Shown here: piece after piece, positions 970 to 55,401 of the stretch
Layout: every line of letters begins with the position of its first letter
How positions within the stretch are numbered: position 1 is the first letter of the stretch
IMG/VR virus record: IMGVR_UViG_3300028646_000003
Coordinates: 1-64,000 of that record
DNA: 64,000 bases
Reading direction: 5' to 3' (one strand)
DNA from: an uncultured virus (IMG/VR IMGVR_UViG_3300028646_000003)
Taxonomy: Duplodnaviria > Heunggongvirae > Uroviricota > Caudoviricetes
Notes under the pieces: model-generated
The model's database searches: none
What the model was told of the DNA's origin: nothing
The model's input: the letters and a program-made list of their open reading frames with translations, nothing else
Translations under genes and position numbers: made by a program

Positions 970-2220
970 TTGAGAGTATTCGTTAAAAATTTAAGAGGAC
1001 AAAACTTAATGCCTTGTTCTCAGAGAAAAGCAAGATTATTATTAAAACAGAATAAAGCAAAGATATATTCTTATAATCCTTTTAGTATACAATTATTAAA
1101 ACAAACAGGCGAATCAATACAAGAATGTAATATAGGTATAAATACTGGATATAGATATATGGGATTTGCAATAACAAGTAGCAATAAAGTTTTAATTAAA
1201 GGAGAAATAGAATTAAGGAACAATATAAAAGAGTTGTTATTTTCTAGAAAAGAATACCGAAGAACTCGTAGAAGTAGAAAAACTAGATATAGACAAGCGA
1301 GATGGAAAAATAGAGCAAGAAAGATAGGATGGTTAGCACCTTCTATACAATCAAAAATAGATAATGAAATATTCTGGGTTAATAAATTAAAATATTTATT
1401 ACCTAATTATAATTTAATAGTTGGCATTGGGAAATTTGATACTCAAAGACTTATAAATCCAGATGTGGATAATAAACATGGTGATTTGTACGGATATGAA
1501 AATGTAAAAGCTTATTTAATAACTAGAGAAAATAATAAATGTCAAATATGTGGGAAAACATATGATGGTTTAGGTTGGAGAATACATCATAAAAAAGAAA
1601 GGAATAAGGGAGGAAGTAATAGAGTTGAAAACTTAGCACTAGTACATGAACAATGTCATAAAGATTTTCATGCAGGGCTAATAAAAAAGAAATTTAGAAA
1701 ACCTAAAGAATATAAAGAGACAACATTTATGAATATATTAAAACAACGAATCATAAGTATATTAAATTGCACTGTTACTTATGGTTATATAACTAAAATT
1801 GATAGACAAAATTTAAAGTTAGACAAGTCTCAGTATAATGATGCGATAGCAATAAGTGGAATAAAAGAAATTAAAGAAAATTGCAATGACATATTATATA
1901 TAAAACAAGCTAGAAAGAAAAAGAGAAGTTTACATGAAGGAACGGCTAGAAAAGGGAGAAAAGAACCTAATAGGCAATCCAAAAGAAATTCTAAGAATAC
2001 TAAATGTTCTCATGGATTTTATTTAAACGATAAAGTTGAAGTGTTTGGTAAAGTTGGGTGGATAAGTGGGTTTGCTGGATATGAATGTTACATAAAAGAT
2101 ATAAGTGATAATTATATAGTTACCCAAAATAAAGCTGGGAAAGGCGTATCTCTTAAACTTTTAAAACTTATAAATCATAATAACAATTGGAAATATACAT
2201 ATAAACAAATTAATATATAA
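970..2220 (+). CDS. iscB: IscB (OMEGA RNA-guided nuclease), RuvC catalytic residues substituted, HNH retained
   Basis: N-terminal (P/N)LMP, RRTRRSRK bridge helix and HNH (CQIC..IHH..GGSN..NL..CH). RuvC motifs read GINTG, IVGIGKFD and SQYNDA. Confidence 0.92.
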   Translation: MRVFVKNLRGQNLMPCSQRKARLLLKQNKAKIYSYNPFSIQLLKQTGESIQECNIGINTGYRYMGFAITSSNKVLIKGEIELRNNIKELLFSRKEYRRTRRSRKTRYRQARWKNRARKIGWLAPSIQSKIDNEIFWVNKLKYLLPNYNLIVGIGKFDTQRLINPDVDNKHGDLYGYENVKAYLITRENNKCQICGKTYDGLGWRIHHKKERNKGGSNRVENLALVHEQCHKDFHAGLIKKKFRKPKEYKETTFMNILKQRIISILNCTVTYGYITKIDRQNLKLDKSQYNDAIAISGIKEIKENCNDILYIKQARKKKRSLHEGTARKGRKEPNRQSKRNSKNTKCSHGFYLNDKVEVFGKVGWISGFAGYECYIKDISDNYIVTQNKAGKGVSLKLLKLINHNNNWKYTYKQINI

Positions 2221-12814: not shown

Positions 12815-14095
12815 ATGGAAGAAAACTACATTGTACATCATTTACATGATGACACATCTAACTGTAATGGATATGCTGATTCATGTACTAAATATGAAGA
12901 ATATATTAAATTAGCAAAAAAATGTGGAATGAAAGCAATAGCATTCAGTAATCATGGTGGTATATATGATTGGATTAAAAAGAAACAATACTGTGATAAA
13001 AATGGAATTAAATATATACATGGAGTTGAATTGTATTTATGTATTAATCTTCAGGACAATACTAGAGGATATCATATAGGATTGTATGGAAAGAATTGGG
13101 AAGGAGTTAAAGAACTAAATACTCTTATGTCAATGGCGACTTCAAAAGGAGTAAAAGAGGATAAATCAGATAGACACATGTATTATAATCCTAGAATATC
13201 ATTTGAAGAACTCATGAATACAAGTGATAATATTATAATTACTACTGCTTGTTTAGCTTCTCCACTATGTAAATTAGGCAATAAAGATATATTAAATGAC
13301 GTAGAAGGTAATGAAACCGAAGAAGGTAGAAAACAATATGAATATAATTTACAAAAAAGAGATGAATTATTACAATGGTTATCTAAACACAATGATAGAT
13401 GTTTTTTAGAGATTCAATATCATAATTGTAATAGTCAAATAGAATTTAATAGTCAATTATATGAATGGTCTAAATTATATAATATACCACTAATAAGTGG
13501 AACAGATACTCATTCATCTAATAAATATAAAGCCGAATGTAGAACAGTTTTACAAAAAGCTAAAGATAGTTTTTATGGAGAAGAAGATGAGTTTGATTTA
13601 ATATGGAAAACATATGATGAATTAGTAGAATCATTTAAAATACAAAATTCCTTACCATTAGAAGTTGTACTTGAAGCAATTAATAATACAAATGTTTTAT
13701 CTAATATGGTAGAAGAGTTTACATTAGATAAAACATTTAAATACCCAAATTTATATGGTAATAATTCAAAATTATTATGGAAAAATAGAATATTTAAAAT
13801 GTTAAAAGATAAAAAGGAACGCAATATTATAGATGTTTCTAAATTAGAAGAATACAAAAAAGCAATATTAGAAGAATTTGATGTAATGTCTAAGTTAGGA
13901 ATGGAAAGTTTTATGATGTTTATGTCAGAACTTATGGAGTGGGCTAGAAATAGTGATATACATTCTAGCCCATGTAGGGGAAGCGTAGGAGGAAGCATTA
14001 TAGCATATATAACTGATATAATTACTGTAGATCCTATTAAGTGGCACACAGTATTTTCAAGATTTTGTAATGCAGATAGAATAAGTCTTGGTGAT
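12815..14095 (+). CDS. dnaE: DNA polymerase III alpha subunit, exon 1
   Basis: PHP domain (HHLH, NHG, HGVELY, GTDTH), then RGSVGGS and FSRFCN..RISLGD; interrupted just before the catalytic DxD. Confidence 0.92.
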
Positions 14096-15354
14096 TAAAA
14101 TAACAAAATAGTTCTAAATAATAAATAAATATGATATAATAAATTAAAATAAAGGAGGTGAGAATTATGAATCAAGAGTATAAAATGAAAATTTCCAAGG
14201 AAACAATTATTGATATATATTATAATGAATATATTAATGGGACTTCTGCTTTAAAATTAGAAGAAAAATATGAATTAAGTAAAGGATATTTATATAGATG
14301 GTTTAATAAACTTGATTTACCCTTAAGAGATAATAGTGTTAATTCTAAACAATACAGTTTTAATGAAAACTACTTTGAAAACATAGATACCGAAGATAAA
14401 GCATATTGGTTAGGTTTTGTATATGCTGATGGCTTTATAACATCTAAAAGAAAACACGCTAATAGAAGTTTAGGAATTTCTTTAGGTATTAAAGACGAAA
14501 GTCATTTGCAAAAACTAAATTATTGTTTAAATAGCAATACACCAGTAAATAAATATATAGAAACTGCTGGATTTGGGATAGGAAATAAATATTGTAGAGT
14601 TATATATGTAAGTAAGAAATTAACAAATGATTTAATAAAACATGGTGTATATGAAAATAAAACTGATATAATAACATCTCCTAATACAATTCCTTATAAA
14701 TATATAAAAGATTTTATTAGAGGATATTTCGACGGAGACGGAAGTATTTGGAAACAAGATAGTAATACACAAGTAAATATTGGTTTCGTTGGAACTAATG
14801 ACTTGTTGCAGTTTATTATGAAGTATTTATTAGATAATAATGCTATATTAAGAGAATATCCTTTGAATAAAAGAAAATCTGAACAAATAGTTAGTAATTT
14901 TAAATTTGGTGGAAATTATAATTCGTTTAGATTTTTAGATTTTATATACAAGGACTCAAATATTTATTTAAATAGAAAGTATCATATTTATTTAGAATTA
15001 AAAGAACACATTGATAGTCACCCTATACAGTAATGTATAGTATAAAAAATTCGGTGAACTTATAAGTATAAGGTGTATAATCAACGAATAGTAATGCTAG
15101 GAAATGAGTATTAATGATTATGCTAACAGGGGAAGCCTTAACGTAAAGACGATGGTAATCCTGTGCCAAGCTTGTAGAGAAATCTACTTGAAGGTCAAAC
15201 GACTAAAATGAGTTGGAATACAACTCTAAGAGGATTAAAGCATGGTGAAAGTCCAAATCCGTAGTGCCGAACTCCTATTTATATAGGATGAAGATATAGT
15301 CTACTCCGACTCTTAATTGAGTGTTAAAGTATTAGGAAACTAACGGTATCAAGG
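14096..15354 (+). mobile_element. group I intron in dnaE
   Basis: 5' exon ends GGTGAT and pairs with GTCACC (15017-15022, U.G at the splice site). Core elements AATCCTGTGCCAAG, AACGACTA and GATATAGTCT are present. Terminal G is 15354. Splicing restores ..SLGD-IDEDF.. Confidence 0.88.
14167..15033 (+). CDS. intron-encoded double-motif LAGLIDADG homing endonuclease
   Basis: AYWLGFVYADG and DFIRGYFDGDG motifs; RBS AAGGAGGT before ATG 14167. Confidence 0.9.
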   Translation: MNQEYKMKISKETIIDIYYNEYINGTSALKLEEKYELSKGYLYRWFNKLDLPLRDNSVNSKQYSFNENYFENIDTEDKAYWLGFVYADGFITSKRKHANRSLGISLGIKDESHLQKLNYCLNSNTPVNKYIETAGFGIGNKYCRVIYVSKKLTNDLIKHGVYENKTDIITSPNTIPYKYIKDFIRGYFDGDGSIWKQDSNTQVNIGFVGTNDLLQFIMKYLLDNNAILREYPLNKRKSEQIVSNFKFGGNYNSFRFLDFIYKDSNIYLNRKYHIYLELKEHIDSHPIQ

Positions 15355-17439
15355 ATTGATGAAGACTTTGCTCCAAAAGATAGAATAAAAGTATATAAGT
15401 ATATCATAGAAAGATTTGGAAATAAGAATGTATCATATATATTATCACTTAGTACTATTCAAGATAGAGGTAGTATTGATGTATTAGCCAAAGGATTAAA
15501 TTATAAAGACTTAGATTTAGTTAAACAGATTAAAAATGAATTTGATAATATCTTCGATGAGTATTCTAAAATAATACAAGAAGAAGTTAACTTGGAAGAA
15601 TTAGACAACGCAACTTCTAAATCACCTAATTTTGATGATTACAAATTATATATAAATGTAATTAGAAATAAAGAAAAGTTAAAAAGAGTTAAAGAATTAA
15701 AAACGTTATGGGATACATTAAGAGAAGATAATAAAGAATTATTCTATTACTTTGATGGAATAAAAGGAACAGTTATAGCCAAAGGAAATCATCCTTCTGG
15801 AATGATAGGTAGTCCAATAACTCTATTTGATAATATGGGTGTATTTTATAAAGGAGGAGATGAAGATTTTCCTGTTTCATTTTGTGCTATGAAGGCAGTA
15901 GATTCATTGAATTATGTAAAGTTTGATATATTAGGACTGAAAACTATAGGTGTAATTCAAGATACATATAAATTATTAAATAAAAAATGGGAAGAAGCAC
16001 ATGAAATTAATTGGGACGATGATAATGTGTGGAGTGATATGTTAATTAGTAATGCTGGAATATTTCAATTCGAAGGAGATTATGCATTTGATTTATTATC
16101 TAAATTTAAACCACATGCAATAAACGATATGTCATTAGTAAATGCAAGTCTTAGACCATCAGGAAAGTCTTATAGAAATAGATTAATTAGTGGGGAATTT
16201 AATAAAAATCCATCTGAAATAATAGATAAGTTATTAGAGGCTAATAAAGGATTTTTGGTATTTCAAGAAGATTCGATTGCATTTTTACAAGAAATATGTG
16301 GCTTTAGTGGTTCTTTAGCCGATACTACAAGAAGAGCTATAGGAAAAAAAGACTTAGAATTACTAAAAGAACAACTCCCAAAAATATTAGAAGGTTATTG
16401 TAATAAATCAGATCAACCAAGAGAAATAGCTGAAAAAGAAGCAAAACAGTTTATACAAATAATTTCAGATTCCTCGGAATATCAATTTGGATATAATCAT
16501 AGCACAGGATATTCAATGAATGGTTATATGTGTGCAAGACTAAGATATTATTATCCATTAGAGTATACTACTGCATATTTAAATAATGCTGAAGACCAAG
16601 CTGATATAGATAATGGAATAGCCCTTGCTAAAGCTAAAAATATAAATATACAAAATCCTAAGTTTAGATATTCTAAAGGTGAATACATGTGTGATAAAGA
16701 AACAAATACAATTTATAAAGGTGTTGGATCAATTAAATATTTAAATGAAACATGTGCAAATCAATTATATGAATTAAAAAACAATGCCTATAATACTTTT
16801 ATAGATTTATTAAAAGATATAAAAGAAAAAGTAGATATAAATTCAAGACAATTAACAGCTTTGATTTTATTAGATTATTTTACCGAATTCGGTAAATCTA
16901 AAAAGTTATTAGAAGTATATAACAAATACACTGATTTAAGTAGCAGAAAACAATTCAAAAAAGTTGATTTAATAACAATGGGACTAACAGAGGATATTAT
17001 AAAAAGATATGCTAAAAAAGAAACAGAAAAGATATTTAAAGAAGTTGATGTTGAATCTTTGATAAATGAACTCATAGAAAATATAGAAAACAAAGACGTA
17101 CCTTTAAAAGAAAAAATATCTGCCGAAATAGAGTATTTGGGATATCCGATAACAAAAGTAGAAAATGATAGTTTATATTATGTTATAAAAATAGATGAAT
17201 TTAAAAATAAGAAGTCAATAACAAGATATCTAACAATGTACGATTTACATACAAATGATTTAATAAAATATAAACTATCTGATTTCTTATATTTTTATGA
17301 TAATCCAATTGAGGAAAAGGATATTGTGCAAATAACTAGTGAATCTAAAAAGCCTAAAAAGCATAAAGATGATAACGGAAATTGGAAAGTTGTGCCTAAT
17401 GAATTTAATCTTTGTATAGACTCATGGGTATGTTATTAA
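15355..17439 (+). CDS. dnaE: DNA polymerase III alpha subunit, exon 2
   Basis: Open from ATT GAT GAA GAC at 15355, in frame with ORF 15592. Contains HPSG, VKFDILGL, FQF, RP, FQE and FGYNHSTGY. Spliced product is about 1121 aa. Confidence 0.92.
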   Translation: MDEDFAPKDRIKVYKYIIERFGNKNVSYILSLSTIQDRGSIDVLAKGLNYKDLDLVKQIKNEFDNIFDEYSKIIQEEVNLEELDNATSKSPNFDDYKLYINVIRNKEKLKRVKELKTLWDTLREDNKELFYYFDGIKGTVIAKGNHPSGMIGSPITLFDNMGVFYKGGDEDFPVSFCAMKAVDSLNYVKFDILGLKTIGVIQDTYKLLNKKWEEAHEINWDDDNVWSDMLISNAGIFQFEGDYAFDLLSKFKPHAINDMSLVNASLRPSGKSYRNRLISGEFNKNPSEIIDKLLEANKGFLVFQEDSIAFLQEICGFSGSLADTTRRAIGKKDLELLKEQLPKILEGYCNKSDQPREIAEKEAKQFIQIISDSSEYQFGYNHSTGYSMNGYMCARLRYYYPLEYTTAYLNNAEDQADIDNGIALAKAKNINIQNPKFRYSKGEYMCDKETNTIYKGVGSIKYLNETCANQLYELKNNAYNTFIDLLKDIKEKVDINSRQLTALILLDYFTEFGKSKKLLEVYNKYTDLSSRKQFKKVDLITMGLTEDIIKRYAKKETEKIFKEVDVESLINELIENIENKDVPLKEKISAEIEYLGYPITKVENDSLYYVIKIDEFKNKKSITRYLTMYDLHTNDLIKYKLSDFLYFYDNPIEEKDIVQITSESKKPKKHKDDNGNWKVVPNEFNLCIDSWVCY

Positions 17440-30174: not shown

Positions 30175-31041
30175 ATGATGAAATTATTTAAAAATGAAAA
30201 AGGTATAAAAGAAGCAAGAGAATCAATGGAAAAACTAATGAATGAAAAATTAGAAATAATCAAAAAGGAAAATGAGAACAAAATAAATAAATTAGAATTA
30301 CAAAATAACGAACTAAATACAGAGTTAGAAACCAAGAATAAGCTATTTGAAGAATATAAGAAATCAGTACAAGAAATAACCTTAAGACTATTAAAAGATA
30401 CTGAATCAATTAGTAATGCCATTGATTCCTCAGCAAGTATATCAGAGGAGTTTACGGCTACAGTAGAAGAGATCAACGCAACTATATTTAACATAGCCGA
30501 AAGAGTTAATAGTGCATACGAAAGTGCTAAAAACAATGGTGGAATAATGGATAAATTTAGTAGCGATATTGAAAATATTTATGATAATGCGAATGATTTA
30601 AATATTAAAATGCAAGATATTTCTAAAATAACAGAAGCTATTAAAGAAATTGCAAACCAAACAAATCTTTTATCATTAAATGCAAGTATAGAATCTGCCA
30701 GAGCTGGGGAATATGGCAAAGGGTTCTCAGTTGTAGCAGATGAAATTAAAAAGTTAGCAGAACAATCAAAAGGTTTTAGTTCTACGATAAGCCAAATAAT
30801 AAAAGAACTTCAAGTTATGGTTACTACTATACTTACAAAGACTGAAACTGGAAAAGAAAATAGCATAAAATTAAAACAAAGTAGTATAACTAGAATTGCT
30901 AATATAGAAGAAATTAATATTAGCATGAGTGATACATCTGCTGGAATGGAAGAAATATCAGCAGGAATTCAAGAACAAACTGCAAATATAGTTGAAATAG
31001 CTAATGAAATTGAGAAGGTACTAAAATTAATCAAGATATAG
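30175..31041 (+). CDS. soluble methyl-accepting chemotaxis (MCP signalling domain) protein
   Basis: Conserved hairpin tip [40 protein letters not shown]; no transmembrane segment. Confidence 0.9.
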
Positions 31042-39996: not shown

Positions 39997-41550
39997 ATGT
40001 TTACTGACAATGACCAATTCTACCCAACCCCTAAAAACTTAGTTTTTAAAATGTTAGATAAGATATCAGAAATAAGAGGCTTTAAGTACGTTCTCGAGCC
40101 GAGTGCTGGTAAGGGAAATATCATTGAATACTATAAGGAATATTACGATAAACAATATTCTAATAAATTTTGGTCGGGAAATAATAGGGCAGAGAAAGAC
40201 TTAGTATTTGATGTAATAGAATTAGATGAAAACTTAGCAAATCTATTAAGAGGGAAAGGTTACAATCTTGTACATGATGATTTTCTTACATATGATCCAC
40301 AAAGATTTTATGATTTAATAATTCTAAATCCTCCATTTGAACAAGGAGATAAACATTTTTTACGATGTTTGGAAATTCAAAAACGAATAGGTGGTCAAAT
40401 TGTAGGTTTGTTAAATGCAGAAACCATAAAAAATCCATATAGTAATACAAGAAAAGAATTAATAAATCAAATACAACAATACAATGGAAAAATAGAATAT
40501 ATTCAAAACGCCTTTAGTGATTCAGAACGAAAAACAGATGTAGAAACTGCTTTAATATACATAAATGTTCCAATGCAAAAAGATGAATCTATATTTGAAA
40601 GACATTTTAAAAGAGATAATCCTGATATAGATGTTGATAATTTTCAAGCATTACTTCCCCAAATGACAAAACTTCAATCTTTAGTATTAGAGTGTGATAT
40701 GGTTAAAAAAGCAACTACAGAATTATTTAAAGAAAAAATGAAAATAAATAAATTATTAAATGGGTTTGGAATAAGTTCTGGTGTTAGCATATGTGATGAT
40801 ACATCGACTCCTAAACAATTATCAATCAATGACTATTTAGACAAGACTAATTTACAATATTGGAACAAATTTATAGAAGAAACTGATTTTAAAAAGAAAT
40901 TACCATCTAAATTAAGAGATAATTTTAATTGCAATATGGAAAAACAAAGAAATATATCTTTTAACATGAATAATATTCACTATTTCTATGAACAATTAAT
41001 ACAAGCTATTCCAAAAAGTTATGAAGAAACTGTTGCAAAAGTTTTTGAAGATCTCACTTATAAGGGGTATTATTCAGATTCAACATGGAATAGCAATATT
41101 TATTTATACAGTGGTTGGAAAACTAATAGTTGTTATAAGATAAATAAGAAATCAATTATAAGATACTATGGAGATTATTTATATAGAGTTCCCGATACAT
41201 TAAAAGATTTAAATATCATCTTCAATAACATACAAGGCGATAGTTATGATATAGACAATAGAGATATAATAGAATCTATTAAAAAATGTGAAAAGAATAT
41301 TGATACACCTCACTTTTATTTATCGAGTTTTAAAAAGGGTACAATTCACATAGTATATAAAGATAAAAGAGCATTAGAGATTTTTAATATTTTAGCAGGA
41401 AAGGGCTTAAACGCATTACCTCCAGACTTTGGGCAAAAGAAATATTCAGACATGAACGAAGAAGAAAAACAATTAGTTAAAGATTTTGATTTGACAGTAC
41501 AGGAATATAATGGATTAGGTATAACAAATAATTATTTAAGATTAGAATAA
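39997..41550 (+). CDS. SAM-dependent N6-adenine-type DNA methyltransferase (DUF4942-like C-terminus)
   Basis: QFYPTP, motif I LEPSAGKG and motif IV ILNPPF; FKKGTIHI near the C-terminus. Confidence 0.8.
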   Translation: MFTDNDQFYPTPKNLVFKMLDKISEIRGFKYVLEPSAGKGNIIEYYKEYYDKQYSNKFWSGNNRAEKDLVFDVIELDENLANLLRGKGYNLVHDDFLTYDPQRFYDLIILNPPFEQGDKHFLRCLEIQKRIGGQIVGLLNAETIKNPYSNTRKELINQIQQYNGKIEYIQNAFSDSERKTDVETALIYINVPMQKDESIFERHFKRDNPDIDVDNFQALLPQMTKLQSLVLECDMVKKATTELFKEKMKINKLLNGFGISSGVSICDDTSTPKQLSINDYLDKTNLQYWNKFIEETDFKKKLPSKLRDNFNCNMEKQRNISFNMNNIHYFYEQLIQAIPKSYEETVAKVFEDLTYKGYYSDSTWNSNIYLYSGWKTNSCYKINKKSIIRYYGDYLYRVPDTLKDLNIIFNNIQGDSYDIDNRDIIESIKKCEKNIDTPHFYLSSFKKGTIHIVYKDKRALEIFNILAGKGLNALPPDFGQKKYSDMNEEEKQLVKDFDLTVQEYNGLGITNNYLRLE

Positions 41551-44238: not shown

Positions 44239-44730
44239 ATGATAAGTAATTATGAAGTTCAATATATGAATATAGTTAAAAATATAATAGAATATGGATA
44301 CTACGATAATAATAGAACAGGTATGCCAACATATAAACTACCACATCAAATAATACAAGTGGATTTACAAAAGGAGTTTCCTATATTAAAAACTAAACAG
44401 GTGGCTTTTAAAACAGCTACAAAAGAAATGTTATGGATATGGCAACAACAGTCAAATGATGTTACATTATTACAAAATCAAAATGTTCATATTTGGGATG
44501 AATGGGTTGATAAGAATAATACTATAGGAAAAGCTTATGGGTATCAAATAGCAAAATATAAACAACTTGATAAACTTATTGAAACTTTAAAAACTAATCC
44601 ACAAGATAGAAGAATGATTATTTCTTTATGGAATATTGAAGATTTACCAGAAATGCAATTACAACCTTGTTGTTATCAAACTATTTGGGATGTGACAGAT
44701 GGTAAACTGAATTGTATGCTTATACAACGT
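44239..44730 (+). CDS. thyA: thymidylate synthase, exon 1
   Basis: NRTG, FPILKTK, IWDEW, YGYQ and LQPC motifs; ends IQR (CGT). Confidence 0.93.
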
Positions 44731-45925
44731 TTGTAAAAGAGCGTCTTTAGGTAGTAATACCTATCGAAAACCCTGTTAAACGGGGAAACTCTTATATTTA
44801 TAAGACAATCCCGTACTAAATATTATTATTTGTGTTATTAAAATAAAAAGGAGGTGAATAAATAATGATAGGAACGTATTTTATAAAAAATTTACTTAAT
44901 AATAAATTTTATGTAGGTCATTCAGTTAATATAAATCAAAGATTTAATTCTCATAAGTCAGCACTAAGAAAAAATAAACATCATAATAAGCACTTGCAAA
45001 GAGCGTGGAATAAATATGGTGAAAATAATTTTGAATTTGAAATCTATAAAATTTGTAATACAGAAATTGAAAGTATAGAAATTGAACAATATTATATAGA
45101 TAATTATAAAGATATGTTATATAACATATCTAAAAAGGCTAAAGATGGTGGTGATTTGTTATCGTATCATCCCAATAAGAAACTAATTATAGAAAAAGGA
45201 TTAGAAACTAGAAAAGAAAATATGTCTAAAATGTCAAAAGAAGAACTAAGCAATACATACGGAAGAAAAGGAGAAGATAATGGAATGTATGGCAGACATC
45301 ATTCTGAAAAATCGAAAAATAAAATTTCTCAAAAAAACACAGGTGCTTATCGAGACATAAAAGGAAAAACTTATTATGAGTTCTTTGGAGAAGAAAAGGC
45401 TGTCGAAATTAAAAATAACTTATCTGATAAAGCAAAATTAAAAATTGGAGAATTAAATAGTTTTTATGGGAAACATCACTCTGAGGAATCGAAAAATAAA
45501 ATTAGAGAAAAACAATTAGGAAAGAAACCTCCTAACATGAAAAAAGTAAAAATAGAAGAAGATGAATACGAAAGTCTAACCGAAGCTTCTAGACAACTAG
45601 GGGTGACACCTACAACAATATTAAATAGAATAAAATCAAAAAACTTTCCTAATTATTATTACATATAAAAACACAAATAATAATTAAATGTCTAACGACT
45701 ATCGAAAGCATGTTTGATAAATATAAAAGGTTATTAAATAGAAGCGAGTAGAGTACCCCTCAAGTTATTGGAGGTTGCATAATGCAAGGTGACGGGAAAA
45801 GCAGGGAATCCTATCTGAAATACTAATAGGATTGTGATATAGTCTTTTCTATATAGTAATATATAGCAGTTTCAATTAATGGAGTTGAAACGGGTAAGGT
45901 TTAACGAACCTTATTGAAAATAGAG
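44731..45925 (+). mobile_element. group I intron in thyA
   Basis: P1 is ACGU|UU pairing with GAGCGU (U.G at the splice site). Core elements AAACGGGGAA, AATCCCGTACTAA, AACGACTATC and GATATAGTCT are present. Terminal G is 45925. Splicing restores QR-SGD. Confidence 0.88.
44865..45668 (+). CDS. intron-encoded GIY-YIG homing endonuclease with NUMOD3 repeats
   Basis: GTY..FYVGHS..R..H..E..YN and two YG(R/K)HHSE(K/E)SK repeats. Flanked by the inverted repeat ATTATTATTTGTGTT/AACACAAATAATAAT. Confidence 0.9.
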   Translation: MIGTYFIKNLLNNKFYVGHSVNINQRFNSHKSALRKNKHHNKHLQRAWNKYGENNFEFEIYKICNTEIESIEIEQYYIDNYKDMLYNISKKAKDGGDLLSYHPNKKLIIEKGLETRKENMSKMSKEELSNTYGRKGEDNGMYGRHHSEKSKNKISQKNTGAYRDIKGKTYYEFFGEEKAVEIKNNLSDKAKLKIGELNSFYGKHHSEESKNKIREKQLGKKPPNMKKVKIEEDEYESLTEASRQLGVTPTTILNRIKSKNFPNYYYI

Positions 45926-46315
45926 TCAGGAGACATTCCATTGGGCGTTCCCTTTAATACAACGCAATATGCAGTTTTAACTCATATGATTGCACAAGCT
46001 ACTGGATTACAAGTAGGGCAACTTACTCATATTATAAATAATGCTCATATCTATGAAAATCAAATTGAAGGCATGAGAGAACAATTAGAAAGATATGAGA
46101 GGTTACAAAGTTGTGTATATAATTATGATACTTATAATGAATATTATAAAGATATAACGCACGAAGAATATAGTAAATTACAAGATATTTATTCTATAAC
46201 CCCTAAACTAAAATTAAATCCTGACATAACTAATTTTTATGACTTCACCATAGACGGTATTGCTTTAGAAGATTATAAAAATATGGGAATTATTAAAATG
46301 AAAGTGAGTGTATAG
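45926..46315 (+). CDS. thyA: thymidylate synthase, exon 2
   Basis: [11 protein letters not shown] and AHIYENQ motifs. Confidence 0.93.
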
Positions 46316-47524: not shown

Positions 47525-47606
47525 AATAATAATGAATAATATCCAATACATAGGTCATACTATTATTATAAACCATTGCTTTAGGAAAACTAAAAAATGA
47601 AAAAAA

Positions 47607-47684
47607 TAAGGGAGTCTAAATATAGATTAGATACTAATTGCAAATTAATGCAAAAAATATTTAAATTATATTTAGACTCCCTTA
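47607..47684. terminator. long inverted repeat at the convergence of the two gene blocks
   Basis: TAAGGGAGTCTAAATATA ... TATATTTAGACTCCCTTA. Confidence 0.55.
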
Positions 47685-47956
47685 AAATTGTAATTATTTA
47701 CCTCATAACGACATGTTGCTTATCCGATTTTCGTATGTTATTATTAGATTGGAACTAATTTAGTGGTATTTTCAAGCGATATTACTATAAAAAGAAGTGG
47801 CTTATAAATTTAAGTTGCTTCTTTTTATTTGAACTTTAATTTATTTTTAAATGTGTATTGACTTTGATTGAAATAGTGATATAATTGTTTTATGGATATA
47901 TTTTGTTTGTTATTATATGTCCTAAAGGTGAGATTACTTGAGAAAGTAGTCTCTTT

Positions 47957-48663: not shown

Positions 48664-49632
48664 TTAAATATCAAACTTTAGCATTTCTTGTTTTAAAGAT
48701 TCGGTATCTTCTTGCAAATAAAAATCTTTTGTTACACCCGTTGATCTATGGGATAACGCCTTCGAGACTGCTTCTAGACTCATACCTGCTTTATATCTAA
48801 GGTCACTGCCACTATGTCTTAAATCATGCATGGATAATTCAGGTTCATTGATAATAGCCCCTATTTGTTTTATCCATGTACTTTTAAATTGTCCAACTGA
48901 AGCTTGTCTCCACCCATTATAATTAGTAACAAATAAATGCTCACATTCAATTCCTTTTTCTTTTCTTTCATTCAACCATTGTTTAATTAATTCTATACAT
49001 CTATCATTGAGATTGAACGTAATAGAATATCCTTCTTTTTCGATTACATCTCTTATAACCCTATTTTCTAAGTCAATCTGGTCTAATCTAATAGTAGATA
49101 TAGCATTAACTCTAGCCATAGTAAATAACCCTAATTCAAATACTAATGTTAATTGAGTATTATTTCTTTCTTTTAATCCTTCTCTTATCGTTTCTACTTG
49201 TTCTTGTGTTAGAAATACTCTTTTTATTTCATAAACTCCTTTTTGAGCTTTAGGTCTTTCTAATAAATCTACTACATTTTCTTTGATTTTTCTTTTCTTT
49301 TTATAATATAGATATAATGATGAGATACTAGACAGTCTACGTTGCATACGTCTATCTTTATTTTCAAATACGCTTTGACATAGTGCAAGAAAATCTTCAA
49401 CAACATCTGCCATTTCCTCAGTTTCAAAATCAAATATGTATTTATTATCATAATTTTTTAATATAAAAACAAAGAATTGGTTTATATCTGAAGTATATGA
49501 ATTCTTAGAGGACTCAGCTAACTGTCTTTTCCCATTAAGATATTTCCTCCAAAGTTCTTTATTTTGTGGATTTATTTGTTCTATCAATTTTGGAGTTGTA
49601 TATTGAACATGTTTTCTTTTTTCTTTTGCCAT
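48664..49632 (-). CDS. tyrosine recombinase/integrase
   Basis: ARV (R), EK, HDLRH, LSH and FY; the catalytic set appears intact. Confidence 0.9.
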   Translation of the reverse strand: MAKEKRKHVQYTTPKLIEQINPQNKELWRKYLNGKRQLAESSKNSYTSDINQFFVFILKNYDNKYIFDFETEEMADVVEDFLALCQSVFENKDRRMQRRLSSISSLYLYYKKKRKIKENVVDLLERPKAQKGVYEIKRVFLTQEQVETIREGLKERNNTQLTLVFELGLFTMARVNAISTIRLDQIDLENRVIRDVIEKEGYSITFNLNDRCIELIKQWLNERKEKGIECEHLFVTNYNGWRQASVGQFKSTWIKQIGAIINEPELSMHDLRHSGSDLRYKAGMSLEAVSKALSHRSTGVTKDFYLQEDTESLKQEMLKFDI

Positions 49633-49633
49633 A

Positions 49634-50170
49634 TTATATCAAGTCCTTTCTTAATTGTTTTATTTTGTCTTTTTTTTTACTAACATTCTTATCTTTCTCA
49701 GCTTTTAATTTGTCCCTAACTTCTTTCCTAGCTTTCTTTTCACTTTTCTTTTGTTTAACTAATTCAGTGTACTGTTTCTTTTCTATTTTATCTTCTAAGT
49801 TAAACCATCTGCTATCATATGTAACAATTAATTCAAAACGTGTATCTTGATTTAAGTATTTAAACATCTTTATCTTGCACTTACTTTCATTTGTAATATT
49901 ATAAAGACTACCTTTTACATCAACAACGACTAGTTGACCATCTCTAATAAAGCTCATATCAGAAATATATTCCATTTTACGAATTCCTTTATTTTCGTAG
50001 TGGGAATCTTTAAAGGCTGGCACTAATAAGAAAGGTTTTTGTCTATCTAAATTGTTTATCTCTCCTTTCTCTTGTTGCTTTAATAGTTCATTCCAATATT
50101 TCCATTCTGTTGTGCTGTCGAAAATTCCCCATTTAGGATCATCAACTTTTTTACTTGAATATTTGCCCAT
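49634..50170 (-). CDS. DUF1064-like PD-(D/E)XK nuclease
   Basis: MGKYSSKK..FDSTTE..Q..F..Y.SD..VVDVKG; start ATG at 50170. Confidence 0.75.
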   Translation of the reverse strand: MGKYSSKKVDDPKWGIFDSTTEWKYWNELLKQQEKGEINNLDRQKPFLLVPAFKDSHYENKGIRKMEYISDMSFIRDGQLVVVDVKGSLYNITNESKCKIKMFKYLNQDTRFELIVTYDSRWFNLEDKIEKKQYTELVKQKKSEKKARKEVRDKLKAEKDKNVSKKKDKIKQLRKDLI

Positions 50171-50281
50171 ATCCCCATTCCTTTCTAATTCAATTTTTAT
50201 AATTCCACGCAACAAAAAAGAGCTTGTACAATTCATACAAACTCTAAAAATAATCTAATATTTAATTTTAATATCTTTGGC

Positions 50282-51106
50282 CTAATCCAAATCTTCTATA
50301 ACATTTAATAATTCTTCTTTACTCTTTCTGGTATAAATCCGAGTTGTTTCAATACTACCATGGCCACATAAATCGGCTACAATATCAATGGCCAAACCAG
50401 AATCTATTAACCGTTTTGCATATTGATGGCGAAATGAATGTGCATGATTTTTCTCCTTTTTTACATTGGCCAACTTACCATATTTCTTTAAAACTTTATC
50501 TACACCACTTCTAGTCATATGGCCACGAGTTCCTACAAACAGGTAATCACAACCTTTATTCATTCGGCCCAATCTACAATAATTTAACCAAACATCATTC
50601 AAGGCCTTGGGAATAAATACAGATCTAATCTTATTTCCCTTGCCAACAATTTGTATTGTATTACTATGTATGTCTTTTATTTGAAGTTGTAGCATTTCAC
50701 TTATTCTTAGGCCAGTCAATTCCAATGTTTTTACTATGGCCAACGTTCTATAATCCTTCTTGGCCTTAGCAATATCAATTATATTTTCTATATCAGCCTT
50801 ATTAATTACATTCTCTAAGAAATTCTGTGATTGTATTTTTACTTTTGTAGTTGTGGCCGACACTTCAATAAAAGCAAAGAATTGATGTATGGCCACAAGT
50901 TTTCTATTGGCCGAAGTAGGAGATAAGAATCTTTCATATAATAAATATTCTTTGTAGGCCTTCATTGTATCATTGTGAAATTCTAATATCTTATTTTCTT
51001 TTGCATAGGCCATGAATTGATTTATATCTCTCATATAGGCCTCAATAGTCTTATTACTTTTTTCTTGCTTGGCCAAGTATTCTCTAAACATTTGTAAATT
51101 ATTCAT
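50282..51106 (-). CDS. Xer-like tyrosine recombinase (probable resolvase)
   Basis: TGLRISE, GKGNK.R, HSFRH, GH and TTRIY motifs; no arm-binding domain. Confidence 0.92.
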   Translation of the reverse strand: MNNLQMFREYLAKQEKSNKTIEAYMRDINQFMAYAKENKILEFHNDTMKAYKEYLLYERFLSPTSANRKLVAIHQFFAFIEVSATTTKVKIQSQNFLENVINKADIENIIDIAKAKKDYRTLAIVKTLELTGLRISEMLQLQIKDIHSNTIQIVGKGNKIRSVFIPKALNDVWLNYCRLGRMNKGCDYLFVGTRGHMTRSGVDKVLKKYGKLANVKKEKNHAHSFRHQYAKRLIDSGLAIDIVADLCGHGSIETTRIYTRKSKEELLNVIEDLD

Positions 51107-51140
51107 CTTTATATACCTCCATAACTATTATACCATGTTT

Positions 51141-51168
51141 TGGACTGATAATCTTAGTTATGTATCGA
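51141..51168. other. dif-like 11-6-11 recombination site
   Basis: TGGACTGATAA-TCTTAG-TTATGTATCGA, inside the recombinase promoter (minus-strand TGGTATAAT at 51128-51136). Confidence 0.65.
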
Positions 51169-51426
51169 ATTTAAAACAAAAATCCTAATTCTTAATGTTG
51201 TGGCCAGTATAAATATGAAAGTATTATCATTAATTCTAATTCTATTACGCCAATATTTTTAGACTTTCTTTTACCTTTAATACAATTGAATTTAAATGGC
51301 ATTCAAAAGCAGAGTTGCAAGTAGAATAACTTTTTCGATTTTATAAAAATGAATGGTTCTGTGGTGTTTATCAAAAATATATGTTATAATATTATATTAA
51401 CCACATAATCATCCTAAGGAGAAGCA

Positions 51427-51612: not shown

Positions 51613-54600
51613 TTACATTATAAACACATATCCAATAATTTTATTTCCAACAACTATCTTGCATTCTAAATCAGATAAACTTCCTAAAACTTCTATTTTA
51701 GAACTCAAATCATTATTATAAGGAGTCCTAGTTATTATTTTACAACTTAATTCTGAAATATTTGATACTGAAATAATACCATTTAAATCATTAGTAGGAG
51801 TAATCTCTACTTTATTATCTAAGTCATTGTATTCATTTCTTCTAACTTTAATCTTACAAGAAATATCTCCTTTAGCAACTCTAATTATACAATCTAAATT
51901 TTCTACTGATATAATATCAATTTTTGAATTTAAATCAATTTCTTTAGTATTCCTTATTTTAATTACTGAATTTAAATAAGATGGTTTAATAACATTAATC
52001 TTACTATCTAAATTATCATTTGCTATTATATTGATTTTTGAATTAAGATCAATATCTGAATATCTTCTAACTTTAATAGTAGAACTTAAGTTTGCGTGAT
52101 TGGTTACTTCTATTAATGAATCTAGATTATTATAAGTAGTTACTATGATTTTAGAATCTAATTCTGAATCCCAAGTGTTTCTTACTTTAATTATACAACC
52201 TATTAATTCATTTGTTAGAACATTGATTACACAATTTAAATCGCTACGTTGAGTTACACTTAATTTATTATTTAAATCTAAAACGTCATTTCTTCGTACT
52301 ATAATACTTGAATATAACTCACTTGTAGGTGTAACTTTAATTATACTAGCTATATCAGGATTATTTACTATGATTTTGCTATTAAGTTCTTTGTATTCAT
52401 TTCTTCTTACTACAACTTTAGAGTCTAATGATAATATTTCATTTCTTCGGACAATTAAATTACTATCAATATTATCTATTTCATTACGTTTTACTGTTAT
52501 GATAGAATTTATATACGGATTATTTACAATAATTGTACTTGATAATTCATTTATTTCATTTAATCTAACTTTTAATAAGGAATCTAAATTATTTTCTTCA
52601 TTCCTTTTTACAACTAGTTTACAATCTAAATCTCCACGAATAACAGTAATTTTAGAATCTAAGTATCCATTATTATTTACGACCAAAGATGAATCTAAAT
52701 CGCTTTCTAAATTATAATTAGGTACAGTAATTGAACAACTTAAATCTTTATTTTCAACACTCATTACGAATATTTTACTTAAAAAATCATTAGAAACATT
52801 ACTCTTTACTGTAGTATCAAAATACTCTATTTCTAAGGTAGGTGGATAAACACTTTCCCTAGAATAAAGCCTTAGTCTTTGTTGAATTGACTCATCAAGT
52901 GATTTAATTATAAATCCATTTTGTAGCATACTACCATTGAACCAATTATCAATTATATACATTAAGTCAATTTCTATAATACTTCCACTAACGCTAGAAA
53001 CAGCTTTTATTGTACTTAAAGAATCTTCTTGATTATTCCAAGTTATATCATTTTCATACCAAGAATCTTTTACTTCATCTAATTGAATACCACTTGTATA
53101 ATAAGACGTATTACTATGTAATTTTAAAATAGCCTTTGTAAATACCCTAGTTGTAGGTATCCCACTTAAATCAAACTGTAAGAATGAGCGATATAATTCT
53201 CCACTATTATTACCAACATACATATCAATTTCGCTACCATAGTTGAATGTAGGTAATTGACTTCTGGTATAAGCATCTTGTACCGGCTTTAATGTCAAAT
53301 TAACTTTAGGAGCTGGTAATATATCTACAATACCAAACATTCTATTGGAAGGTCTAGTCTTGATTATAGAATTTAAATCCTCAGTACCTTCATTAATTAC
53401 TAAGATAGTAGAATCTAAATCATTAGTATCTGTAATGTATACAAACATCTTACTTGAGATATCGTTTTTACCATCGACAAATCTTACATGAATAGTTGAA
53501 TTTAAATCAATATTTTCATTTCTTCTGACTAATACATTTGAATTGATATCAGTTATATCATTTCTTCTAACTGTAATCTGTGAATCGAATTCATTGTTGT
53601 CATATCTTCTGACATTCAAGATACAATCTACTGTAGACATATCTCTTACTGTTATTTTAGTTGATAAATCTTTTGCAGAAGGTATTCTAACAGATATTTT
53701 AGAATTTAATTCTTTATAATTGGTAACTTTTATTTTACTTAAGAATTCACTTGTTGGAGATATTTTTACTATTCCATTGAAATCATCATCTAAATATCTT
53801 CTTACTTTTATTATAGAATCAACTTCGCCCTTACTAACTAAAATCTTACAACCCAATTCTTCAAATAATGAAATTAAAATTGTACTATCAATGCTACCAT
53901 CGTCATATCTTCTTACATTAATTATGGAATTTAAATCATTATCTTCAGACCTTCTAACTTTAATTGTAGAATCTAAGTCATTGGTAAACATAACTAAAAT
54001 TTTACTATTTAATTCATTAATGTCGTATCTTCTGACTTTAATTATCGAACTTAACTCATTATAATTATACCTTCTAACTGTTATCTTTGATGATAATTCA
54101 CTAAATCTTGTGGTAGATATTGTGCAATTCAGTTCACTTACATCTTTTCTTCGTACTATTATTTTAGAGTTTAAATCTTTATATTCATTACGTCTTACTG
54201 CAAGTTTACTAACTAAGTCTAAAATATTAGTAACTTTAATATTTGAATTTAGTTCACTAATATCATATCTTCTAACTTTCACCTTACAATCTAAATCCTT
54301 AATTTGTGTAACATTTATAATACAAGGCATTTGATAATTATTAACTACAGTTATTTTACAACTAATATTAGGTTGGGATACTGCAACTTGTGAATTGAAA
54401 TCTCTAGCAGTATTTATTTTAACTTTTATTATAGAATTTAAATTAACTCCTGTTGCAACATTGATTTTACTATTTAATGCGTCTGTTAATACTTGTAATT
54501 TACAATCTAAATAACTATTATTTCTAACTGTTATTGTACTATCTAAATCATTATTAAAATCATATTCAGGAACTATTATAGTACAATTTAATTCATTTTT

Positions 54601-55401
54601 TGCAGGTATTTTTACACTTATTTTACTATTTAATATTGCTGACCCATAGCTAGGAGGATTAGGGTTAAAATACTCAACTTCCAATATAGGAGTAAAACTT
54701 GATTCTCTTGAATAAGTTCTACCATATTGATTATAAGTTTCGTCTGAAGATTTAAAAACAAATCCTGTTTGGAATCTATTTCCTTCGTACCAATCAATAA
54801 TACTATTTGTAACATCACAATATATATATTTCTGACCTAGTGAAGTTCCACCTTGGAATGTTTCAAGTAGAGTTCCCATTGGAGGTTGGTTATCCCATGT
54901 AATATCATTTTCATCAAAACTATTTAAACATTCGTATACTTCTAAGTTAGGAATAAAATTATCAGTACTTATCCTAGTTGCTTTTATTGTTGCTTTTGTT
55001 ATTATTAAACCTTTTTGTAATCGAAGTAAATTAAAGTCCATGAATGTTCTAAATATTCCATCAAAAGAAGATGAATAACCAACTAATAAATCTTTTTCTT
55101 TTCCGTAATTTAGAACTGGTTGGTCTGATCTCACGAATGCATCTTTTAAGCAAGGTATAATTTGAGTTATTTTTTGTGTTTTGACTATATCTACAGTACC
55201 AAACATTTTGTTCTTTATTGGAATAGTTAAGGTACTTGATAATGAAACATTTTCGTCTTGTACTGATTCATCATTATATCTAACTGTAATTGTACTATTT
55301 AAATTATTGACAGAATCTATATCAATTTTTGCATAAGCTTCATTTTGAACATTACTTCTATTAATTATTATATATGAATTTAAGTCGTTATCATATTGCA
55401 T
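51613..55401 (-). CDS. large repeat protein with two DNRLRE/CBM96-like domains (virion appendage or adhesin)
   Basis: Two domains DA(F/Y).RS..P..NYG..R.F..F.L..A..K..ITW.NQ..SRE..P.LE.EY, separated and followed by dozens of L(N/D)(S/C).I.V(RR) repeats. Confidence 0.75.
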   Translation of the reverse strand: MQYDNDLNSYIIINRSNVQNEAYAKIDIDSVNNLNSTITVRYNDESVQDENVSLSSTLTIPIKNKMFGTVDIVKTQKITQIIPCLKDAFVRSDQPVLNYGKEKDLLVGYSSSFDGIFRTFMDFNLLRLQKGLIITKATIKATRISTDNFIPNLEVYECLNSFDENDITWDNQPPMGTLLETFQGGTSLGQKYIYCDVTNSIIDWYEGNRFQTGFVFKSSDETYNQYGRTYSRESSFTPILEVEYFNPNPPSYGSAILNSKISVKIPAKNELNCTIIVPEYDFNNDLDSTITVRNNSYLDCKLQVLTDALNSKINVATGVNLNSIIKVKINTARDFNSQVAVSQPNISCKITVVNNYQMPCIINVTQIKDLDCKVKVRRYDISELNSNIKVTNILDLVSKLAVRRNEYKDLNSKIIVRRKDVSELNCTISTTRFSELSSKITVRRYNYNELSSIIKVRRYDINELNSKILVMFTNDLDSTIKVRRSEDNDLNSIINVRRYDDGSIDSTILISLFEELGCKILVSKGEVDSIIKVRRYLDDDFNGIVKISPTSEFLSKIKVTNYKELNSKISVRIPSAKDLSTKITVRDMSTVDCILNVRRYDNNEFDSQITVRRNDITDINSNVLVRRNENIDLNSTIHVRFVDGKNDISSKMFVYITDTNDLDSTILVINEGTEDLNSIIKTRPSNRMFGIVDILPAPKVNLTLKPVQDAYTRSQLPTFNYGSEIDMYVGNNSGELYRSFLQFDLSGIPTTRVFTKAILKLHSNTSYYTSGIQLDEVKDSWYENDITWNNQEDSLSTIKAVSSVSGSIIEIDLMYIIDNWFNGSMLQNGFIIKSLDESIQQRLRLYSRESVYPPTLEIEYFDTTVKSNVSNDFLSKIFVMSVENKDLSCSITVPNYNLESDLDSSLVVNNNGYLDSKITVIRGDLDCKLVVKRNEENNLDSLLKVRLNEINELSSTIIVNNPYINSIITVKRNEIDNIDSNLIVRRNEILSLDSKVVVRRNEYKELNSKIIVNNPDIASIIKVTPTSELYSSIIVRRNDVLDLNNKLSVTQRSDLNCVINVLTNELIGCIIKVRNTWDSELDSKIIVTTYNNLDSLIEVTNHANLSSTIKVRRYSDIDLNSKINIIANDNLDSKINVIKPSYLNSVIKIRNTKEIDLNSKIDIISVENLDCIIRVAKGDISCKIKVRRNEYNDLDNKVEITPTNDLNGIISVSNISELSCKIITRTPYNNDLSSKIEVLGSLSDLECKIVVGNKIIGYVFIM

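Follow-up and report, generated by a model that had tools for sequence, protein, structure and literature searches.

A tyrosine recombinase gene saturated with GGCC, a word purged from the rest of a large phage genome

The stretch of DNA analysed here, called the window, comprises 64,000 nt and is the first half of a single-contig uncultured virus record (IMG/VR IMGVR_UViG_3300028646_000003; 130,085 bp, 27.2% GC). At about 50-51 kb it carries an intact gene for a Xer-like tyrosine recombinase, with a putative core recombination site and a promoter element upstream and an intrinsic terminator downstream, followed by genes for a predicted Holliday-junction resolvase and a second, divergent tyrosine recombinase (Table 1). 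Written through the first recombinase gene is a dense array of the tetranucleotide GGCC, which is the subject of this report. The protein matches the Pfam families Phage_integrase (PF00589, 1.1e-31) and SAM-like N-terminal domain (PF02899, 3.4e-10), and residues R134, H223, R226, H249 and Y258 are invariant across 29 aligned recombinase homologues. With these catalytic residues and a SAM-like core-binding domain, it belongs to the tyrosine recombinases of the Phage_integrase superfamily. The equivalog models for the Xer proteins (XerA, XerC and XerD) gave scores of 165.8, 152.4 and 151.9 bits, for which the NCBIfam cut-offs are 220, 329.6 and 335.15, and we consider the predicted protein as Xer-like only. 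No similar DNA was found among GenBank phages, and the protein matches there all have less than 32% identity.

The motif count over the 64,000 bases of the window returned exactly 18 GGCC, every one of them between positions 50279 and 51205. Dinucleotide shuffles of the window contain 27.99 GGCC on average, scattered across its length. The total is thus unremarkable, and the anomaly is the placement. The complete record contains 19 GGCC compared with approximately 41 expected, the single outsider being at position 93579, and the frequency in the remainder of the record predicts 0.01 sites for the 927 bp that hold 18. We scanned all 4- to 6-mers of the record for clustering. GGCC words rank first by far, with 18 of the 19 copies of GGCC itself within 1 kb (Poisson-scan p 1.6e-29); the best-clustered word unrelated to GGCC has a p value of 1.5e-6.

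Sixteen of the sites are in the coding sequence, one (50279-50282) includes the final base of the TAG stop codon and one (51202-51205) is located 96 bp upstream of the ATG. The 16 coding sites occupy two codon phases, 12 being of the type xxG-GCC and four of the type GGC-Cxx. Fifteen of the 18 sites read WGGCCW (TGGCCA, 8; AGGCCT, 3; TGGCCT, 2; AGGCCA, 2; TGGCCG, 2; CGGCCC, 1, for all 18). There is no extended motif around the 18 sites, with flank information of at most 0.7 bit, and no helical phasing among them at 10.5 bp, a period for which the power was 0.91. In one respect the locus resembles regulatory arrays of methylation targets such as P1 pac or the GATC cluster of oriC, as a short methyltransferase target is clustered well above expectation. 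An earlier note on this stretch, made from its letters alone, had reported 18 GGCC confined to this interval in a window that appeared otherwise GGCC-free, 16 of them in the coding sequence, one on the stop and one upstream, with 15 of the WGGCCW type; the exact counts agree with it throughout.

A search of other virus records for clusters of GGCC pairs returned only two copies of the same phage locus. The identical array is present in many samples, namely in 23 peat metagenomes among the 24 public runs listed, which included no RNA data set, and in four independent assemblies. Among the low-depth contigs of four public runs, one divergent contig of 151 nt has GGCT instead of GGCC at position 50912.

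The sites are not a by-product of codon habits. The recombinase offers 19 opportunities to write GGCC with synonymous codons, and 16 of them are used, compared with 1 of 1,198 in the remaining open reading frames (ORFs) of the record (Fisher 1.6e-32). Two of the three unfilled opportunities need one synonymous change. In seven homologous genes, none of the opportunities is used (0 of 9 to 0 of 13). The codons involved are rare in this genome, as the earlier note had claimed: GCC represents 13 of the 19 Ala codons of the recombinase and only 5% of the Ala codons in the rest of the record, and GGC, of which the gene has five, represents 6% of the Gly codons elsewhere. Plain codon rarity is ruled out as an explanation, since the choice depends on context. 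Thus, GCC is chosen in 13 of the 14 Ala contexts in which the preceding codon can end in G, 12 of which yield GGCC, and in none of the five Ala preceded by Tyr, Phe, Ile or His, which are encoded by GCA or GCT. The rare G-ending codons TTG, TCG, GTG, GAG and AAG precede the GCC sites. Similarly, five Gly residues precede an amino acid for which a C-initial codon is available, and four of them are encoded as GGC-C.

The two non-coding sites follow the same trend. The stop context is TAG-GCC in the window and TAA-AAA in locus L003, the closest homologue for which DNA is available (68% identity), and the upstream site reads CTGGCCAC in the window and TTAGAAAA in L003. Because GCC depends on the preceding codon and two sites lie outside the coding sequence, the signal is a DNA word rather than a codon preference. 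The idea of a second code laid over the protein, put forward in the earlier note, is therefore supported by the saturation of opportunities, the two codon phases, the two non-coding sites and the derived Ala residues described below. As read from the sequence, selection appears to have written a DNA-level word through the coding sequence, up to nearly the maximal load that the protein tolerates.

Base composition does not account for the array either. Once the GGCC letters are removed, the GC content of the region is 25.8%, compared with 27.2% for the record. None of the other 15 GC tetramers exceeds expectation, barring those that overlap GGCC, and the dinucleotides GG, CC and GC are not enriched outside the sites. 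The import of a GC-richer gene with all GC tetramers raised, which the earlier note had named as an outcome that would undo its proposal, is thus ruled out. So is Ala-rich or GC-rich coding as a trivial source of GGCC, as Ala represents only 19 of 274 residues and GC words are flat. An effect of mRNA structure is unsupported: the predicted fold has a z score of -0.76 (5 of 20 shuffles are as stable), and that of L003 has a z score of +1.34 (20 shuffles). No phage tRNA for GCC or GGC was found, the sole tRNA detected being Ser-GCT.

The comparison with homologues indicated that the array is derived. We used 17 AT-rich homologous loci (103,795 bases, 41-71% identity), in which the gene contains no GGCC at all; their four GGCC are all outside of it. 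The gene is identical, with its 18 GGCC complete, in three further assemblies of this phage (L001, L002 and L012). In a site-by-site comparison, TTG-GCC of the window corresponds to TTA-GCT in L003 and GGC to GGT or GGA, and several Ala sites of the window correspond to different residues in L003. In the protein alignment, Ala at positions 12, 33, 50, 66 and 239 is confined to the window protein and P0002, an 87%-identical relative compared here as protein, and Ala at positions 115 and 168 is unique to the window protein. In the remaining homologues, these seven positions are occupied by Ile, Asp, Asn, Lys, Glu, Gln, Val or Ser. Homologues offer 9-13 opportunities for GGCC versus 19 in the window protein. 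P0002 keeps 14 of the 16 site dipeptides unchanged.

The GGCC-free homologues and the seven derived Ala residues imply that the load was gained on one branch, with the enzyme remaining intact. Sequence comparison indicates that this gain took place by paired silent changes plus replacements at positions that appear tolerant. The earlier note had raised the possibility that GGCC would be kept at synonymous positions among homologues. This was not the case, as the homologues are devoid of any enrichment, and hence the array is a novelty of this sublineage and not a property of the recombinase family.

The rest of the genome shows the opposite trend. An IMG/VR contig of the same phage (G025) overlaps the right end of the record (G000) over 22,116 bp at 100% identity and extends it by 89,753 bp, still short of the left end. 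The genome is thus of at least 219,838 bp, a jumbo-phage size, which contradicts the completeness estimate of 74% given for the record. The added 89,753 bp are GGCC-free, and the union of both contigs (219,838 bp, to which the following counts refer unless otherwise stated) still has only 19 GGCC compared with 62 expected. With one copy outside the array, GGCC is not at a normal frequency elsewhere, a comparison that the earlier note had proposed. Many other words are similarly depleted (observed/expected): GCNGC (1/72), GCWGC (0/69), CCWGG (2/50), GGWCC (3/38), CCNGG (3/51), GCGC (0/32), CGCG (1/15), CCGG (6/35), GATC (166/495), CTGCAG (0/17), GGTACC (0/12) and CCGC/GCGG (10/35 and 15/33, respectively). 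In the record by itself, the corresponding figures are 3/25 for CCGG, 0/20 for GCGC, 1/9.5 for CGCG and 89/305 for GATC. The target word and other palindromes are therefore far below Markov expectation, as in genomes that avoid restriction sites. AGCT (510/547) and TGCA (675/706) are untouched by the purge, as is GTAC, and these three may be words protected by the methyltransferases of the phage itself.

Table 1. Location of the GGCC array, the recombinase cassette, its neighbours and the methyltransferase genes (window coordinates unless a locus is named).
Feature	Position	Strand	Remarks
GGCC array	50279..51205	.	18 tetranucleotides, irregular spacing, 18-131 bp between sites
Xer-like tyrosine recombinase coding sequence	50282..51106	-	274 aa, intact, 16 GGCC sites
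Ribosome-binding site of the recombinase	51116-51120		GGAGG
Extended -10 promoter element	51127..51135	-	TGGTATAAT (coding strand); read from sequence, conserved with L003
Putative core recombination site/operator	51140..51168	.	imperfect inverted repeat, 6-bp spacer, upstream of the -10 element
Intrinsic terminator of the recombinase unit	50219..50245	-	12 pairs then T run; GGCC-free
DUF1064 gene, downstream	49634..50236	-	annotated Holliday-junction resolvase; DUF1064 2.6e-16, phrog_190 2.7e-23
Second, divergent tyrosine recombinase	48664..49632	-	322 aa, GGCC-free
Orphan gamma-class methyltransferase	39997..41550	+	NPPF motif; DUF4942 2.9e-24, weak Dam hit
Three tandem C5 cytosine methyltransferases (PF00145)	L058 4318-5271, 5283-6245, 6274-7176		on G025

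The elements around the recombinase gene form a compact unit of 0.9 kb. The -10 element was identified by inspection because the consensus promoter scan omitted it, there being no good -35 element. Neither the -10 element nor the ribosome-binding site contains GGCC. The block that comprises the inverted repeat upstream is kept between the window and L003, and the equivalent in L018 is a near-perfect 12+6+12 palindrome. Inverted repeats spaced by 6 bp recur at this position in other homologous loci, with clearer examples in L018, L019 and L023. The repeat of the window putatively serves as the core site of recombination or as an operator, and the dif-like site of the earlier note may correspond to it. 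The terminator is also kept in L003, L014 and L015.

The genes flanking the unit are unrelated in the window and in L003, despite the conservation of promoter, putative core site and terminator. At the position of the DUF1064 gene, L003 (3444-4058) codes for a protein of the RusA-like resolvase family that shares no similarity with the DUF1064 protein, which indicates a non-orthologous replacement. The conserved flanks and different gene contexts suggest that the cassette moves between contexts as a module. Relatives of the recombinase are encoded on Clostridium plasmids and on contigs of 100-350 kb. Together with the TubZ-like and FtsK-type genes described below, the plasmid relatives make the genome look like a large phage-plasmid, for which multimer resolution is expected. 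We thus predict that the unit is a multimer-resolution cassette composed of the putative core site, the promoter, the recombinase gene and the terminator.

The source of this DNA looks like a large Clostridium-type phage with phage-plasmid-like features. The genes of the plus arm (1-47.5 kb) are predicted to function in replication and nucleotide metabolism and include those for RecD2-like and DnaB-like helicases, a fused type II topoisomerase, NrdD, DHFR and a DNA ligase. The minus arm contains tail, baseplate, lysis and fibre genes, with the recombinase block at its end. An inverted repeat with 52-nt arms (47591-47700) is found where the two gene arms converge, and a near-consensus promoter (47858-47885; TTGACT, 16 nt, TG-TATAAT; 11 of 12 matches) is aimed into the late arm in antisense. 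Immediately upstream of the cassette, a gene on the minus strand (51613-55401) codes for a protein of 1,262 residues with two CBM96 modules separated by dozens of degenerate repeats of ~15 residues, which is probably a fibre or receptor-binding protein. No convincing inverted repeats of a tail-fibre shufflon were seen.

The gene for the DNA polymerase III alpha subunit (12815-17439) is split around a LAGLIDADG ORF (14158-15033), and that for thymidylate synthase ThyA (44239-46315) is interrupted by a GIY-YIG/NUMOD3 ORF (44865-45668). The genome has at least six more HNH homing-endonuclease-like ORFs at scattered positions. A HEARO RNA (Rfam RF02033, 90.1 bits for a gathering threshold of 83) is found at 715-950 on the plus strand, directly followed by an ORF of 416 residues with RRXRR and HNH domains (970-2220, plus strand). 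We take this pair to be an IscB-type RNA-guided nuclease with its omega-RNA. The 16 nt that precede the omega-RNA scaffold have no second match with at most two mismatches in the record, array included.

Other genes are unusual for a tailed phage. An ORF of 288 residues (30175-31041, plus strand) contains a methyl-accepting chemotaxis signalling domain (PF00015, 5.5e-32). The extension codes for a TubZ-like GTPase of the tubulin/FtsZ family (L061 16254-17336), an FtsK/SpoIIIE-family ATPase (L061 12656-14146) and a PemK/MazF-domain protein of 270 residues (L059 17776-18588), a set of partition and toxin genes in the style of a plasmid. Two further tyrosine recombinases and several repressors and antirepressors are also encoded there.

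The earlier note had suggested looking for a GGCC-specific m5C methyltransferase in the phage. The extension indeed carries three tandem genes for C5 cytosine methyltransferases, located ~85 kb beyond the right end of the record and next to the gene of a 552-residue tyrosine recombinase; they are candidates for a cognate GGCC specificity. The PC and ENV motifs of all three are intact, their target-recognition regions differ, and two of them are paralogues with 50% identity. An identical methyltransferase is present on a contig of 283,734 bp. The names of the C5 homologues gave no hint of specificity. A profile search of the 130-kb record, which is incomplete, yielded no match to C5 or N4/N6 methyltransferase families. 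The sole methyltransferase within the window is the orphan gamma-class enzyme, whose translation contains the motifs EPSAGKGN and NPPF and which is also detected as MTase_II by PADLOC (8.5e-10). The NPPF motif points to N6-adenine methylation, and this enzyme is unlikely to be the GGCC writer. An ORF of 240 residues upstream of its gene was considered as a hidden nuclease and rejected, as the hydrophobic stretch at the N-terminus of its translation looks like a membrane anchor.

We tentatively favour the hypothesis that the array is a handle for a GGCC-specific enzyme of the restriction-modification type, placed on a multimer-resolution cassette. As 18 of the 19 GGCC are found in the cassette, it is essentially the sole place where such an enzyme can act on this genome. 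The class of the reader is suggested by the nature of the word, a bare palindromic tetranucleotide without conserved flanks or phasing. The sublineage would have overwritten the cassette with a maximal load of bare GGCC under positive selection acting on the DNA, and the remaining genome would have been purged of GGCC along with dozens of other restriction targets. The reader could be one of the three phage C5 methyltransferases or a host GGCC system. One and the same agent would exert both pressures, with the sublineage gaining from its action on the cassette and nowhere else.

As for function, a modified array would form a unique methyl-marked patch beside the recombination site, and an unmodified array in a GGCC-restricting cell would be the single break point of the genome. 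Resolution, cyclisation or the supply of recombinase might thereby depend on the modification state of GGCC in the DNA. The near-saturation suggests that more sites make for a stronger function, as would hold for a race between cutting and methylation or for the density of a mark. The array, its saturation, its DNA-level nature and derived origin, the purge and the presence of the C5 genes are observed, and the class of the reader and these consequences are our inference. The more specific proposal that the purged word is re-used as a private, off-target-free address, and that the array serves as an epigenetic and cleavage fuse coupling resolution or cyclisation to the modification state of the DNA, is held slightly more loosely.

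Several observations weigh against the restriction-modification handle. The strongest of the C5 methyltransferases matches M.HhaI (1.7e-47) better than M.HaeIII (2.9e-32); it aligns with them in the catalytic core, and its target-recognition region fits neither. The other two match catalytic cores alone. Moreover, the family of the strongest enzyme is widespread on other large contigs and is thus not specific to the sublineage that has the array. The profile search of the record revealed no nuclease of the RE_HaeIII or RE_NgoPII family, and PADLOC analysis of 109 ORFs gave the MTase_II hit only, with no restriction nuclease. The absence of a GGCC-type endonuclease family probably weighs little, however, since such enzymes are too diverse. 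On the host side, the RE_HaeIII family matched none of 20 genomes of the host genus of a distant homologue, a search in which the control also matched nowhere.

Other objections concern the array itself. The methylation- or hemimethylation-sensing switch proposed in the earlier note is hypothetical, as are its alternatives there, a restriction decoy and a loading array. Direct control of the promoter or of the recombination site by methylation appears unlikely, given that neither the -10 element nor the putative core site contains GGCC. A word that the phage can protect with its own methyltransferase need not be purged, which mildly suggests that GGCC is unprotected. Eighteen sites offered to a restriction enzyme look costly for a phage that is otherwise purged, and the occurrence of the array in one lineage only makes for thin comparative support for a function. 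The enzymes named above are candidate readers.

The first alternative, which we consider unlikely, is that GGCC, freed by the purge, was re-used as a cis-acting signal for a phage factor outside restriction-modification. Candidates for such a factor include an HNH nickase of short specificity, a packaging or replication-restart nuclease that makes ends near the lox-like site, in the way that phage P1 places pac near lox, or an architectural protein loading next to the core site. The concentration of 18 of the 19 GGCC of 219,838 bp in the array agrees with a private address, as does its location astride the putative core site, beyond which one GGCC is found, the other 17 being on the side of the gene. 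The phage also has many HNH, GIY-YIG and LAGLIDADG nucleases and ORFs without assigned function, and the neighbours of the array are DNA-processing genes (the junction resolvase and the second recombinase). However, recognition of a bare tetranucleotide without flanks or phasing is rare outside the restriction-modification enzymes. As for packaging, the general annotation identified no terminase and nothing ties the array to this process; in addition, its 927 bp far exceed known pac sites, and IMG/VR contigs assemble straight through the locus.

Somewhat less probable again is that the GGCC sites exist to be cut. In one version, cleavage would act like a fuse and linearise the replicon or delete the recombinase, either once modification lapses or in a foreign restricting host. 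In another version, the allele would have evolved on a resident element bearing a restriction-modification system and have reached the phage by recombination in the cassette flanks, making it restriction-sensitive at its own cost. Escape from restriction falls steeply with the number of sites, and a saturation in which more is better fits a race between cutting and methylation. The conserved flanks and varied contexts of the cassette indicate that it moves by recombination, and the ligase, exonucleases, RecD2-type helicase and junction resolvase of the phage could process a break. Against this, a break kills or truncates the genome, and both a benefit and a repair route would be hypothetical. 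The recurrence of the identical array in the peat runs and four assemblies indicates that it is not obviously costly, and the recombinase is intact with all its catalytic residues, which is unexpected for a mere poison.

A reading of the array at the level of RNA or translation is improbable. GGCC would then be the target of an endoribonuclease in the mRNA, or else GCC and GGC, as rare codons, would slow translation and keep the recombinase scarce. Seventeen of the 18 sites are in the predicted transcript, both codons are rare here, and the PemK/MazF-like ORF of the extension (9.2e-20) is possibly such a nuclease. Nevertheless, codon choice follows the neighbouring codon, which excludes plain rarity, and one site is upstream of the promoter. 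The purge spans many palindromes at once, a signature of DNA restriction that counts against RNA as the target. The mRNA fold is ordinary, and the only phage tRNA is Ser-GCT. UACAU, a MazF target in Firmicutes, is not avoided, with 354 copies on the sense strand.

A non-adaptive origin by import, by local mutation or gene-conversion bias, or as a side effect of Ala- or GC-rich coding is the least credible of these explanations: the cassette is mobile, GC content at third codon positions outside the GGCC codons is slightly raised (19.4% versus 15.8%) and 5 of 15 Arg codons are CGN, but GC content without the sites is below the mean of the record with no other GC word raised, the protein is not Ala-rich, the use of 84% of the opportunities by paired changes in adjacent codons and amino acids is unlike a composition shift or short-patch repair, and no homologue with even one site is available as a potential donor. 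The remaining probability belongs to some explanation beyond those listed.

The searched portion of the literature, including part of the review PMC12707154, describes no gene saturated with an avoided restriction site. The feature is statistically overwhelming and derived, with its function proposed from a single lineage. Avoidance of restriction sites is textbook knowledge, which cannot be said of the deliberate build-up of an avoided site in one place. The evidence from this locus is unusually clean in showing that a coding sequence can be overwritten by selection with a second message at the DNA level, to near saturation and even at the cost of amino acid changes. If the reader is indeed a restriction-modification enzyme, phages would use the modification machinery of their hosts or their own as an information channel, beyond evading it. 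If it is of another kind, a protein or ribonuclease with a bare tetranucleotide as its target would remain to be discovered. A simple criterion for finding more such elements in genome scans would be a word purged globally and saturated locally, and the element, being small and self-contained, is amenable to synonymous recoding.

The cassette resembles the Cre/loxP, ResD/rfsF and XerCD/dif systems, in that an RHRHY recombinase is encoded next to a putative site, an inverted repeat spaced by 6 bp within the promoter region of the gene, here on a large, TubZ-bearing, phage-plasmid-like genome and with a predicted activity. We know of none of these systems with an overlaid array of a restriction word. 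The closest parallel to the array itself is found in P1, a phage-plasmid in which hexamers containing the Dam target GATC cluster inside pacA, where they gate its function by methylation, and in the cre regulatory region, with Cre/loxP nearby. In both cases, a palindromic methylation target of 4 bp is clustered in a coding region beside a tyrosine-recombinase system, and a 6-bp palindrome is frequent, TGATCA in P1 and TGGCCA here. The pac site of P1 comprises seven elements in ~160 bp, and its writer and reader are known. In contrast, the present array has 18 sites in 927 bp, it saturates the synonymous opportunities with a word purged elsewhere, and only candidates can be named for its writer and reader.

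Finally, Rusinov et al. are said to have described, in 2015 and again in 2018, the avoidance of restriction sites, i.e. short palindromes, in phage genomes. The classic purge is seen in the rest of this genome. The recombinase gene has the opposite sign, as a single gene that carries a near-maximal load of the purged word.

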